A stretch of DNA of 64,000 nucleotides from NCBI RefSeq assembly GCF_013122565.1, contig NZ_CP053258.1; one strand, given 5' to 3'. This DNA is from Escherichia coli. GTDB lineage: Bacteria; Pseudomonadota; Gammaproteobacteria; Enterobacterales; Enterobacteriaceae. The notes beneath the pieces were generated by a model. The model had not been told where the DNA came from. It did not search any database and worked only from the letters and a program-made list of their open reading frames with translations. The position numbers and the translations under genes were made by a program. Below are positions 13,381 to 64,000 of the stretch, piece by piece (within the stretch, counting starts at the first letter, position 1; each line of letters begins with the position of its first letter).

Positions 13381-13416
13381 AAAAAAGCCTGAGTTCGATG
13401 AGGGACGAACTCAGGC
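13381..13416 (-). terminator. Rho-independent terminator downstream of yedS
   Basis: Hairpin GCCTGAGTTCG...CGAACTCAGGC (13387..13416) followed on the minus strand by a U-run (A-run 13381..13386 on plus). Confidence 0.55.
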
Positions 13417-13459
13417 TAGTGTTAAGTTTTACAGTAACACGCCGCAGCGAGTTGGCTGA

Positions 13460-23451: not shown

Positions 23452-23538
23452 AACACATCAGATTTCCTGGTGTAACGAATTTTTTAAGTGCTTCTTGCTT
23501 AAGCAAGTTTCATCCCGACCTCCTCAGGGTCGGGATTT
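23452..23538 (+). ncRNA. dsrA: DsrA small regulatory RNA
   Basis: 87-nt AACACATCAGATTTCCTGGTGTAACGAATTTTTTAAGTGCTTCTTGCTTAAGCAAGTTTCATCCCGACC(T)CCTCAGGGTCGGGATTT, with terminal hairpin and U-run. Confidence 0.9.
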
Positions 23539-24130: not shown

Positions 24131-24173
24131 TCTTATTCAGCCTGACTGGTGGGAAACCACCAGTCAGAATGTG

Positions 24174-37125: not shown

Positions 37126-37233
37126 AGAAACCTCCTGAGAGCACACTGAAAAGAATAGGAGAGGGGGCGGGTAAAATCTATGTGGTACAGAGGCAACGAT
37201 ATTCCCGCTGTGGGCCACAGCGGGAATGAGGGA

Positions 37234-57517: not shown

Positions 57518-57553
57518 TTTGAAACGGCGGCAGAAACCTGCCGCCGGAGAGCA

Positions 57554-58546: not shown

Positions 58547-58711
58547 GGTCCAGCCAGAAGAGTAAGAGAAAGCACTATTTTACGCGTTACAGCGCTGCGA
58601 CAATGGCCGGAAAAGACGCCTGGCAGGCGCTATTTCTTGCCATCTGTAGGTGTCAGAAATAGGGGGGCTGTTTTTTTGATTATCATTTTTATAACATTAA
58701 AGGGGTATTTA

Positions 58712-58727
58712 TGTGATTTGTATCACA
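58712..58727. promoter_or_regulatory. CRP-type palindrome TGTGA-N6-TCACA upstream of azuC
   Basis: TGTGATTTGTATCACA read directly, about 80 bp upstream of the azuC ATG. Confidence 0.45.
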
Positions 58728-58809
58728 TAAAGATTGATTTTTGTGATGGTTGTCATATTATAAGCGCAAAGACAATAACACCTGTATAACAAATGGTCGG
58801 AGTGCCGCG

Positions 58810-58897: not shown

Positions 58898-58926
58898 AAA
58901 AAACCTGCTCCGGCAGGTTTTTTTGT
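58898..58926 (+). terminator. Rho-independent terminator of the azuC transcript
   Basis: AAAACCTGC-TCCG-GCAGGTTTTTTTGT hairpin plus U-run directly after the azuC stop. Confidence 0.6.
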
Positions 58927-59844: not shown

Positions 59845-60640
59845 ACCTAATATCCTTATATCCAGAAGTGGAGAGGTGCAAGATAAATCAAAGCACCATA
59901 ATTACTGTTTGCAGAATAATTCCTTTCTGCCGGTCCGAAATGTGATCGTGGAGTCAATTCTGACGATGATCTGAAATAAGAATAACGTGTGTACGGGTAT
60001 AAGAAAATCCTTAAATCATCAAGTTTATATTTTTTTACATTTCATTGATGAAATCAATGTAACTGCAATGAATTTTAATGATAGTGCTTTTTGTATCTTG
60101 TTGATATCAATCGATAGATTTAAATTCATGATGAAGCAATGATTTTATAAAACGTTTTTTCATTTTTGCGAGATGGCTCGCATTATATGTGTTCTGTTAA
60201 TTAATGAGCCCAGTGATAATTAATGGCGAAATGAATGACGCGCATTTCCCACATCTTTGAGTTGCGGTTATTACGCCATTTCAAAAGCTCAACGTCAGGT
60301 AATGCGGCCTATTGACTGGTTAAAAAGAAGACATCCCGCATGGGTACCAAAGACAACAAGGACTTCCAGGCTAATCTTATGGATTAATCTGCTGTGCACT
60401 CGACAATTTGTCTGACAAATAAGTATTTCCTTATGTCTTTTCCCGCTAAATTTATGCACGTTCTCACTGTAATTCTGCGATGTGATATTGCTCTCCTATG
60501 GAGAATTAATTTCTCGCTAAAACTATGTCAACACGGTCACTTATCTTTTAGTTAAAAGGTAATGCTTTGTTTTCCGATTAATTTAACGAAAGTCATTCGT
60601 TTTTGCCCTACACAAAACGACACTAAAGCTGGAGAGAACC

Positions 60641-61630
60641 ATGCACAAATTTACTAAAGCCCTGGCAGCCATTGGTCTGGCAGCCGTTATGTCACAATCC
60701 GCTATGGCGGAGAACCTGAAGCTCGGTTTCCTGGTGAAGCAACCGGAAGAGCCGTGGTTCCAGACCGAATGGAAGTTTGCCGATAAAGCCGGGAAGGATA
60801 TAGGGTTTGAGGTTATTAAGATTGCCGTGCCGGATGGCGAAAAAACATTGAACGCGATCGACAGCCTGGCTGCCAGTGGCGCAAAAGGTTTCGTTATTTG
60901 TACTCCGGACCCGAAACTCGGCTCTGCCATCGTGGCGAAAGCGCGTGGCTACGATATGAAAGTCATTGCCGTGGATGACCAGTTTGTTAACGCCAAAGGT
61001 AAGCCAATGGATACCGTTCCGTTGGTGATGATGGCTGCGACCAAAATTGGCGAACGTCAGGGCCAGGAACTGTATAAAGAGATGCAGAAACGGGGCTGGG
61101 ATGTCAAAGAAAGCGCGGTGATGGCGATTACCTCCAACGAACTGGATACGGCTCGTCGCCGTACTACGGGGTCTATGGATGCGCTGAAAGCTGCCGGATT
61201 CCCGGAAAAACAAATTTATCAGGTACCTACCAAATCTAACGACATCCCGGGGGCATTTGACGCTGCCAACTCAATGCTGGTTCAACATCCGGAAGTTAAA
61301 CATTGGCTGATCGTCGGTATGAACGACAGCACCGTACTGGGCGGCGTACGTGCAACCGAAGGTCAGGGCTTTAAAGCGGCCGATATCATCGGTATCGGTA
61401 TTAACGGTGTGGACGCAGTAAGCGAACTGTCTAAGGCACAGGCAACCGGCTTCTACGGTTCCCTGCTGCCAAGCCCGGATGTACATGGTTATAAGTCCAG
61501 CGAAATGCTTTACAACTGGGTAGCAAAAGGTGTTGAACCGACCAAATTCACCGAAGTTACCGACGTGGTGCTGATCACGCGTGACAACTTTAAAGAAGAA
61601 CTGGAGAAAAAAGGTTTAGGCGGTAAGTAA
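60641..61630 (+). CDS. araF: L-arabinose ABC transporter periplasmic binding protein AraF
   Basis: 329-aa ORF MHKFTKALAAIGLAAVMSQSAMAENLKLGFLVKQPEEPWFQTEWKFADKAG... Confidence 0.92.
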   Translation: MHKFTKALAAIGLAAVMSQSAMAENLKLGFLVKQPEEPWFQTEWKFADKAGKDIGFEVIKIAVPDGEKTLNAIDSLAASGAKGFVICTPDPKLGSAIVAKARGYDMKVIAVDDQFVNAKGKPMDTVPLVMMAATKIGERQGQELYKEMQKRGWDVKESAVMAITSNELDTARRRTTGSMDALKAAGFPEKQIYQVPTKSNDIPGAFDAANSMLVQHPEVKHWLIVGMNDSTVLGGVRATEGQGFKAADIIGIGINGVDAVSELSKAQATGFYGSLLPSPDVHGYKSSEMLYNWVAKGVEPTKFTEVTDVVLITRDNFKEELEKKGLGGK

Positions 61631-61645
61631 TTTGCCGGAAAAATT

Positions 61646-61668
61646 CCCCTCTGCATGATGCAGAGGGG
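61646..61668 (+). other. Intra-operon perfect stem-loop between araF and araG
   Basis: CCCCTCTGCAT-G-ATGCAGAGGGG perfect 11-bp inverted repeat 16 nt after the araF stop; no U-run follows, so not a classic terminator. Confidence 0.5.
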
Positions 61669-61699
61669 GTGTGAACGACCAGTGATTCACGGAGACGTT

Positions 61700-63214
61700 A
61701 TGCAACAGTCTACCCCGTATCTCTCATTTCGCGGCATCGGTAAAACGTTTCCCGGCGTTAAGGCGCTGACGGATATTAGTTTTGACTGCTATGCCGGTCA
61801 GGTTCATGCGTTGATGGGTGAAAATGGCGCAGGAAAATCAACTCTCTTAAAAATCCTCAGCGGCAACTATGCGCCAACCACGGGTTCTGTAGTGATTAAT
61901 GGGCAGGAAATGTCCTTTTCCGACACGACCGCAGCACTTAACGCGGGCGTGGCGATTATTTACCAGGAACTGCATCTCGTGCCGGAAATGACCGTCGCGG
62001 AAAACATCTATCTCGGCCAGCTGCCGCATAAAGGCGGCATTGTGAATCGCTCATTGCTGAATTATGAGGCGGGTTTACAACTTAAACATCTTGGTATGGA
62101 TATTGACCCGGACACGCCGCTGAAATATCTCTCCATTGGTCAGTGGCAGATGGTTGAAATCGCCAAAGCGCTGGCGCGTAACGCCAAAATTATCGCCTTT
62201 GATGAGCCAACCAGCTCCCTCTCTGCCCGTGAAATCGACAATCTTTTCCGCGTTATTCGTGAACTGCGAAAAGAGGGGCGGGTGATCTTATACGTTTCTC
62301 ACCGTATGGAAGAAATATTTGCCCTCAGCGATGCCATCACTGTCTTTAAAGATGGACGTTATGTCAAAACCTTTACCGATATGCAGCAGGTTGACCACGA
62401 CGCGCTGGTGCAGGCGATGGTCGGGCGCGACATTGGCGATATCTACGGCTGGCAACCGCGTAGTTATGGCGAGGAGCGCCTGCGTCTTGATGCTGTGAAA
62501 GCACCAGGCGTGCGTACGCCAATAAGTCTGGCGGTTCGCAGTGGTGAAATTGTTGGGCTGTTTGGTCTGGTAGGGGCGGGGCGTAGCGAATTAATGAAAG
62601 GCATGTTTGGCGGGACGCAAATAACCGCCGGTCAGGTTTATATCGACCAACAGCCGATCGATATTCGTAAACCGAGCCACGCCATTGCCGCAGGCATGAT
62701 GCTCTGCCCGGAAGATCGCAAAGCGGAAGGCATTATTCCCGTGCACTCCGTTCGCGACAATATCAACATCAGTGCCAGACGTAAACATGTGCTCGGCGGT
62801 TGTGTAATCAACAACGGTTGGGAAGAAAACAATGCCGATCACCACATTCGTTCTCTCAACATCAAAACGCCGGGCGCTGAGCAACTGATCATGAATCTCT
62901 CAGGCGGAAATCAGCAAAAAGCCATTCTGGGCCGCTGGTTATCGGAAGAGATGAAGGTCATTTTGCTGGATGAACCTACGCGCGGCATTGATGTTGGTGC
63001 TAAGCATGAAATTTACAACGTGATTTATGCGCTGGCGGCGCAGGGTGTGGCGGTGCTGTTTGCCTCCAGCGACTTACCTGAAGTCCTCGGCGTTGCCGAC
63101 CGGATTGTGGTGATGCGGGAAGGTGAAATCGCCGGTGAATTGTTACACGAGCAGGCAGATGAGCGTCAGGCACTGAGCCTTGCGATGCCTAAAGTCAGCC
63201 AGGCAGTTGCCTGA
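61700..63214 (+). CDS. araG: L-arabinose ABC transporter ATP-binding protein AraG (504 aa)
   Basis: ORF 61655..63214 contains [23 protein letters not shown]...; start set at ATG 61700; duplicated ABC cassette with Walker [10 protein letters not shown]. Confidence 0.9.
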
Positions 63215-63225
63215 GTAAGGAGAGT

Positions 63226-64000
63226 ATGATGTCTTCTGTTTCTACATCGGGGTCTGGCGCACCTAAGTCGTCATTCAGCTTCGGGCGTATCTGGGATCAG
63301 TACGGCATGCTGGTGGTGTTTGCGGTGCTTTTTATCGCCTGTGCCATTTTTGTCCCGAACTTTGCCACCTTCATTAATATGAAAGGGTTGGGCCTGGCAA
63401 TTTCCATGTCAGGGATGGTGGCGTGTGGCATGTTGTTCTGCCTTGCTTCCGGTGACTTTGACCTTTCTGTCGCCTCCGTAATTGCCTGTGCGGGTGTCAC
63501 CACGGCGGTGGTTATTAACCTGACTGAAAGCCTGTGGATTGGCGTGGCAGCGGGGTTGCTGCTGGGCGTTCTCTGTGGCCTGGTCAATGGCTTTGTTATC
63601 GCCAAACTGAAAATAAATGCTCTGATCACGACACTGGCAACGATGCAGATTGTTCGAGGTCTGGCGTACATCATTTCAGACGGTAAAGCGGTCGGTATCG
63701 AAGATGAAAGCTTCTTTGCCCTTGGTTACGCCAACTGGTTCGGTCTGCCTGCGCCAATCTGGCTCACCGTCGCGTGTCTGATTATCTTTGGTTTGTTGCT
63801 GAATAAAACCACCTTTGGTCGTAACACCCTGGCGATTGGCGGAAACGAAGAGGCTGCGCGTCTGGCGGGTGTACCGGTTGTTCGCACCAAAATTATTATC
63901 TTTGTTCTCTCTGGCCTGGTATCAGCGATAGCCGGAATTATTCTGGCTTCACGTATGACCAGTGGGCAGCCAATGACGTCGATTGGTTATGAGCTGATTG
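63226..64000 (+). CDS. araH: L-arabinose ABC transporter permease AraH, N-terminal part; the 3' end lies beyond the window end
   Basis: ATG at 63226 after GGAGAG RBS; hand translation M(M)SSVSTSGSGAPKSSFSFGRIWDQYGMLVVFAVLFIAC...; frame open to 64000. Confidence 0.85.
   Translation, partial: MMSSVSTSGSGAPKSSFSFGRIWDQYGMLVVFAVLFIACAIFVPNFATFINMKGLGLAISMSGMVACGMLFCLASGDFDLSVASVIACAGVTTAVVINLTESLWIGVAAGLLLGVLCGLVNGFVIAKLKINALITTLATMQIVRGLAYIISDGKAVGIEDESFFALGYANWFGLPAPIWLTVACLIIFGLLLNKTTFGRNTLAIGGNEEAARLAGVPVVRTKIIIFVLSGLVSAIAGIILASRMTSGQPMTSIGYELI

Follow-up and report, generated by a model that had tools for sequence, protein, structure and literature searches.

What does the palindrome that separates araF from araG in the L-arabinose importer operon of Escherichia coli do, and on which of the two strands is it at work? 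We have addressed this question in a stretch of 64,000 nucleotides of E. coli DNA (hereafter the window, always meant at its full length), combining predicted folds, orthologous spacers and published maps of RNA 3' ends. The elements around the spacer are the following, with positions counted in the window:

60641–61630, + strand: araF, encoding the periplasmic L-arabinose-binding protein (329 aa), with its TAA stop at 61628–61630; placed by its open reading frame and by the RefSeq annotation of identical or near-identical E. coli loci.
61638, − strand: 3' end of an antisense RNA in published Term-seq data (K-12 NC_000913.3 1985131, + strand); the RNA ends in ...GGGGAAUUUUUC, 8 nt past the stem.
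61639–61645, + strand: the run AAAAATT, which adjoins the stem on its 5' side and whose − strand reading, AAUUUUU, is the U-tract of an antisense terminator-like site.
61645–61669, + strand: the hairpin, with its left arm at 61646–61655, loop at 61656–61658 (UGA), right arm at 61659–61668 and a U61645·G61669 pair at the base; placed by its fold, covariation, G·U bias and excess over chance.
61674–61699, + strand: a weak predicted helix, AACG (61674–61677) with CGUU (61696–61699), which encloses the araG Shine-Dalgarno GGAG (61691–61694) and belongs to the minimum-energy fold only.
61700–63214, + strand: araG, the ATP-binding subunit, with its true start at ATG 61700 (MQQSTPYL...); placed by its open reading frame, the RefSeq starts and tblastn of the N-terminus across 82 loci.

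The locus has the gene order of K-12, ftnB-araF-araG-araH-otsB, and its araF and araG reading frames match RefSeq araF and araG in 5416 of 5426 complete E. coli genomes. Across the araF–araG spacer, 111 nt are 100% identical to K-12 MG1655, where the operon lies on the minus strand; coordinates were converted as window x = NC_000913.3 1981999 + (64770 − x). Of the 5416 E. coli genomes, 5390 share the spacer at 99% identity or more; this agreement within the species is uninformative because the window equals K-12 throughout 61600–62200 as part of a mosaic pattern. From 60000 to 64000 there are 86 mismatches to K-12, clustered mainly in the 3' half of araF (61000–61599) and upstream of the gene (60100–60299), with none within 61600–62199, and this clustering looks like a recombination mosaic; in the C-terminus of AraF, 2 of 79 residues differ from K-12. 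Two breakpoints in other genomes fall close to the hairpin. In E. coli ECSC054 (NZ_AP024112.1) homology to the window begins exactly at the A-run that precedes the hairpin (61639), and upstream of the junction comes a tnpA of the IS200/IS605 family, together with another hairpin that has a T-run (CCCCCAGCCTAGCTGGGGGTTTTC), araF not being adjacent; in NZ_AP022171.1 the breakpoint is at about 61589 of the window. As for the start of araG, two ATGs that lie in the hairpin's loop and right arm (61655–61660) share the frame of the gene, and a mechanical reading frame taken from 61655 would encode 519 aa against the annotated 504 aa from 61700. We have rejected them as an alternative start: they have no Shine-Dalgarno, they lie inside the hairpin and the loop sequence is variable even within Escherichia.

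Positions 61646–61668 read CCCCTCTGCAT-G-ATGCAGAGGGG, that is, two 11-nt arms with 100% complementarity and a single nucleotide between them. The initial annotation had described a perfect inverted repeat directly behind the binding-protein gene, forming an 11-bp stem-loop that lacks a U-run. The repeat is indeed perfect over both arms, far above chance, and it is indeed next to araF, beginning 14–15 nt past the TAA stop and ending 30–31 nt ahead of the araG ATG. The 11 + 11-nt palindrome stands as well, but an 11-bp stem with a 1-nt loop is physically impossible, and the RNA is predicted to fold into 10 Watson-Crick pairs (61646–61655 with 61659–61668) closed by a 3-nt loop, UGA; the wobble U61645·G61669 at the stem base brings the minimum-energy fold to 11 pairs. 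The remark on the U-run is correct for the + strand, on which the stem is followed by GUGUGAAC, but not for the − strand, on which it is followed by AATTTTTCC.

The 23-mer folds with −18.2 kcal/mol, or −19.8 kcal/mol when its flanks are included, with a z of about −5, and not one of 200 shuffles folded equally well. Six perfect stems of at least 10 bp are present in the 64-kb window against 0.23 expected from dinucleotide shuffles, and the araF–araG hairpin motif is found there in one copy (0.00 expected), still the only one when up to three mismatches are allowed; per E. coli genome the motif has a median of one place. No Rfam covariance model gave a match overlapping 61600–61700 at E-values up to 10. 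Other perfect stems of 9–12 bp in the window are located at 13386–13417, 23512–23536, 24142–24167, 37201–37227, 57525–57546, 58708–58731 and 58898–58923. The last of these (AAAAAACCTGC...GCAGGTTTTTT) resembles a bidirectional terminator, the stem at 23512–23536 is followed by a T-run, and that at 13386–13417 is preceded by an A-run, like the araF hairpin.

How far the structure extends beyond E. coli was examined by scanning species-representative genomes for AraF, which gave 80 loci in Enterobacteriaceae and Pantoea; the spacer was defined from the araF stop to the araG ATG. Three loci yielded none, and the set comprises 77 distinct usable spacers. Nearly all of them contain a strong GC-rich hairpin (median −19 kcal/mol, at a median of 14 nt after the stop), a few low values in the table of 77 being parsing artefacts of nested folds. 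It is evident how the sequence of this hairpin varies from clade to clade while its position after the araF stop is kept. Within Escherichia the stem CCCCTCTGC...GCAGAGGGG is invariant and encloses five different loops of 3–9 nt; the Citrobacter group of sp. R56, NCU1 and Awk 4 has the stem CCCTCTGTCGC...GCGGCAGAGGG, and Enterobacter, Leclercia, Lelliottia and Silvania have GCCCCTCAC...GTGAGGGGC. In Citrobacter amalonaticus, C. koseri, C. gillenii and Buttiauxella the same slot is taken by REP-like palindromes (GCCGGATAAGGC...), elements that are classical stabilisers of upstream mRNA. Such palindromes, in one or two copies, were seen at eight Citrobacter loci and at four loci of Buttiauxella and others. 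The REP core TAGGCCGGATAAGGC also occurs in E. coli, at 44773 of the window; the araF–araG hairpin of E. coli is itself single-copy, as opposed to the multi-copy REP/BIME elements with their REP consensus.

For a closer look at what has been kept, the 39 spacers with recognisable shared flanks were aligned and the 10-pair helix was scored. Of all cells, 93.2% are paired, compared with 45–61% when the partner columns are slid by 1–3 positions. The paired percentage is inflated in comparison with those controls, as the sequences counted are also those from which the structure was derived. Double-sided changes are unaffected by this, and they occur in eight of the ten pairs (64 cells). The covariation score reaches 0.482, while no slid control exceeds 0.162 and none of 500 shuffles attained the observed values. 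Thus it is the pairing rather than the sequence that is kept in the relatives, as expected of a protective element on the mRNA.

A perfect helix is symmetric between the strands, and for that reason the wobbles were also counted. With the innermost pair left out, the sense strand has a G·U in 21 cells, which come from roughly 10 or more separate lineages, against a single A·C cell, which corresponds to a G·U on the antisense strand. Strand-neutral mutation would predict equal numbers of both, and about 10 against 1 independent events give a one-sided binomial p of about 0.006. Variation inside the species goes in the same direction: E. coli AUSMDU00002545 and O157:H7 Z1825 carry a C-to-T change at 61651 in the left arm (CCCCTTTGCA), by which a C:G pair becomes U·G in the sense RNA and an A·C mismatch in the antisense RNA. 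The wobble asymmetry and the O157:H7-lineage variant together argue that the fold under selection is that of the araFGH sense-strand mRNA, not a DNA cruciform, an operator or an antisense RNA. A further variant, in isolate 624, has one additional G in the 3' G-run.

We consider it reasonably probable (roughly 0.6), by analogy with other operons, that the hairpin is an intercistronic 3' protective structure on the araF end of the araFGH mRNA. It is a stable stem-loop (−18 to −20 kcal/mol) directly 3' of araF within a polycistronic transcript, and it matches the classical protective structure because of its position, the lack of a U-tract, the conservation of structure and not of sequence, and its replaceability by REP elements. 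The palindrome is transcribed within the araFGH mRNA and folds as a stable GC-rich stem-loop 3' of the araF stop; as it starts about 14 nt past that stop, a terminating ribosome would probably leave the stem folded. The araGH portion would then be cut by RNase E, or the transcript would be ended early by Rho, and PNPase and RNase II, degrading from 3' to 5', would stall at the stem. A translatable araF-only mRNA that outlives the araGH portion would remain, and the result would be more binding protein than ATPase or permease. That exonucleases are held up on the sense mRNA, and that protein ratios are affected, is what we infer.

There is a precedent for this in E. coli itself. Dar & Sorek 2018 (PMC5927463) found that malEFG and four other E. 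coli ABC operons all have their binding-protein segment stabilised, and they describe protective 3' structures that are conserved in Salmonella and Enterobacter. Neither araF nor araG appears in the differential-decay tables of that study. In K-12 Term-seq data from LB and M63 glucose, conditions in which araFGH is off, a sense-strand 3' end at the hairpin is not listed, as expected because the operon is uninduced in LB and glucose media. The initial annotation had also proposed an intra-operon element that stabilises the upstream mRNA and raises binding-protein expression relative to the membrane components. This proposal is supported in part, since the sense-mRNA fold is under selection, adjoins araF in essentially every orthologous operon, has no U-tract, can be replaced in its slot by REP elements and has a precedent among E. 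coli ABC operons; the stabilisation of araF as such would follow by analogy.

Some other roles were considered for the hairpin and discarded. The stem is far too short for an RNase III site, an enzyme that usually needs a stem of roughly 20 bp. A riboswitch or attenuator was rejected as there is neither an alternative fold nor an Rfam match. We also rejected the idea that the main hairpin sequesters the araG ribosome-binding site, the stem ending 22 nt before the Shine-Dalgarno. The separate AACG/CGUU helix around that Shine-Dalgarno reaches right up to the araG AUG and does not appear in the centroid structure; many genera conserve the motif CACGGAGACGTTATG.

Among the other explanations, the one that survives best is a leaky internal terminator on the sense strand, by which a fraction of the RNA polymerases would stop after araF and the araF:araGH ratio would be set transcriptionally; we regard it as unlikely, albeit worth serious weighing. 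It has a model in Ruminiclostridium, where the amount of binding protein relative to translocator is set by internal intrinsic terminators downstream of the binding-protein genes (Wu et al. 2022; PMC9045158), and the stem-loops that act there as leaky terminators in ABC operons have long GC stems and U-poor tails. A few orthologous spacers even have U-rich tails, as in Atlantibacter (GCGCTCGCCTTTTTGG) and Mangrovibacter (CGCCCGTTTACC); at the two Atlantibacter loci a different stem is followed by TTTTTGG or GTTTGG, and this stem with its T-rich tail looks like a sense-strand terminator. The E. coli hairpin, however, is without the U-rich tract immediately 3' of a GC-rich stem by which sense intrinsic terminators are recognised. 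Of the 8 positions in its tail (GUGUGAAC), 2 are U, nothing is called on the + strand by the terminator scan, and a sense-strand U-run after the hairpin passes the scan rule in just 1 of the 77 spacers, while intrinsic termination by E. coli RNA polymerase generally requires a U-tract. The comparative data on their own fit an exonuclease barrier and leaky termination alike and cannot separate the two.

The terminator scan does call the hairpin on the − strand, and on that strand only, with the stem followed by AATTTTTCC, the complement of AAAAATT at 61639–61645. Read in this direction (CCCCTCTGCATCATGCAGAGGGG AATTTTTCCG), the site has a stem of 10 pairs, seven of them GC, and at least 5 U in 8 positions within 0–2 nt of it, as intrinsic terminators do, so that in Escherichia the palindrome together with the A5 run upstream looks additionally like a terminator-like site for antisense transcripts. 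An RNA end has in fact been mapped there. Among the about 1000 dominant 3' ends listed for three conditions by Adams et al. 2021 (PMC7815308, supplementary file 1), K-12 position 1985131 (+) is given as "antisense araF" in LB at OD 0.4, LB at OD 2.0 and M63 glucose, and it sits at the end of the − strand run AAUUUUUC. Since this end is 8 nt past the stem, an RNA capped by the hairpin stem accumulates and is stable in cells. The same study reports a bicyclomycin-sensitive (Rho) region antisense to araF at 1985454 (window about 61315), some 320 nt further on, and, in one condition, a 3' end antisense to araG at 1984165 (window 62604). Weak promoter-like matches on the − strand inside araG were noted at 61801 to 61773, 62760 to 62732 and 62785 to 62757.

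It is in this light that the main role of the palindrome might be thought to be antisense, as an intrinsic terminator for transcripts that would start inside araG; it would protect araF and its promoter from antisense transcription, or would define the 3' end of a cis-antisense RNA overlapping the start region of araG. We find this doubtful, in spite of the − strand stem that passed the scan, the 3' end 8 nt past it in all three conditions, the weak promoter-like sites within araG and the A-run itself, which is kept as A4–A5 in all six Escherichia spacers amid varying neighbouring bases. While the hairpin is nearly universal, just 9 of the 77 spacers, most of them from Escherichia and the related Citrobacter group, have the upstream A-run that would give an antisense U-tract; the Enterobacter-type homologues lack this run. 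The G·U wobbles and the O157 variant moreover favour the sense fold and weaken the antisense stem, and the +8 end, which would fit intrinsic termination, would fit equally an exonuclease stalled at the stem after Rho termination at the bicyclomycin-sensitive region downstream.

Both faces could also be combined in Escherichia, the palindrome capping the araF mRNA and at the same time, with the A5 run, terminating a short cis-antisense RNA that would start inside araG, possibly near 61766, and overlap the araG ribosome-binding region. We give this little chance; were it true, the antisense RNA would help to uncouple araGH from araF expression or would shield araF from antisense transcription.

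An even slimmer chance is left to a papBA-type model in which the hairpin shields the downstream araGH and not araF, RNase E cutting AAAAAUU 5' of the stem and the stem becoming a 5'-terminal structure. The bases AAAUU at 61641–61645, directly upstream of the stem, match the RNase E motif RN↓WUU, and 5' protective structures are described by Dar & Sorek 2018 (PMC5927463). This motif, however, is so loose that about 1 match per 64 positions is expected by chance, its conservation does not extend to the Enterobacter-type spacers (GUGAUUGCG), and according to that paper the stabilised portion of the ABC operons is the binding-protein segment. Finally, a feature of the DNA with no role as RNA (a palindrome that binds a protein, is left over from a REP or mobile element, or is neutral) is extremely improbable, because for all the perfection of the palindrome, the REP elements at the same place in other genera and the IS200/IS605-family insertion that abuts the hairpin in one E. 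coli strain, the Escherichia loop varies from 3 to 9 nt around an invariant stem and would break any half-site spacing, compensatory changes swap the stem sequences between genera, the G·U bias is strand-specific, and the hairpin is single-copy both in the window and in E. coli genomes.

The protective 3' stem-loop, which we prefer, would not be a novelty. A dyad symmetry in the araF–araG spacer was reportedly noted when the operon was sequenced (Scripture et al., J Mol Biol 1987, 197:37), and Horazdovsky & Hogg (J Mol Biol 1987, 197:27) are said to have seen, besides the full-length transcript, a more abundant araF-specific one that ends in that spacer. Most likely, the hairpin is a long-known, ordinary member of a well-described class in the best-studied bacterium, and what we add here is small, namely the explicit test of covariation and strand asymmetry and the connection made between the antisense Term-seq peak, which stands uncommented in the published supplementary table (PMC7815308), and the palindrome. 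Its importance beyond annotation is little: it provides one more, cleanly covarying, case of the fold that enterobacterial ABC importers carry after the binding-protein gene, a stable RNA structure that probably yields more binding protein than membrane components. Regarding method, an asymmetry in the numbers of G·U and A·C pairs shows which strand of a perfect palindrome is under selection, and such a palindrome can yield a stable 3' end on the "wrong" strand, which in 3'-end maps may be taken for a terminator or an antisense RNA gene.

Compared with known systems, the antisense face is like a canonical Rho-independent terminator in having a GC-rich 10-bp stem, then five U, and an in vivo 3' end at +8 nt. 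It departs from one in the two A between the stem and the U-run, in its location inside an operon and opposite to the genes, in being specific to the Escherichia lineage, and in a 3' end that may reflect exonuclease trimming. With the Ruminiclostridium terminators the sense hairpin shares a long GC-rich stem after a binding-protein gene and a U-poor tail; it differs in that its tail is even poorer in U and that it is known from sequence, while termination has been demonstrated for those Gram-positive elements. The closest parallel is the intercistronic protective structure (REP/BIME) between malE and malF, reportedly described by Newbury et al. 1987. Unlike that structure, the araF hairpin is simple, lone and single-copy, and is not a member of a dispersed family. 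Like it, it is a stable stem-loop immediately 3' of the first gene, which encodes the binding protein, of an ABC importer operon; as in malE–malF and other 3' protective hairpins, there is no functional U-tract and structure prevails over sequence in enterobacteria, and the role proposed for both is that of a barrier to 3'-5' exonucleases after downstream cleavage.
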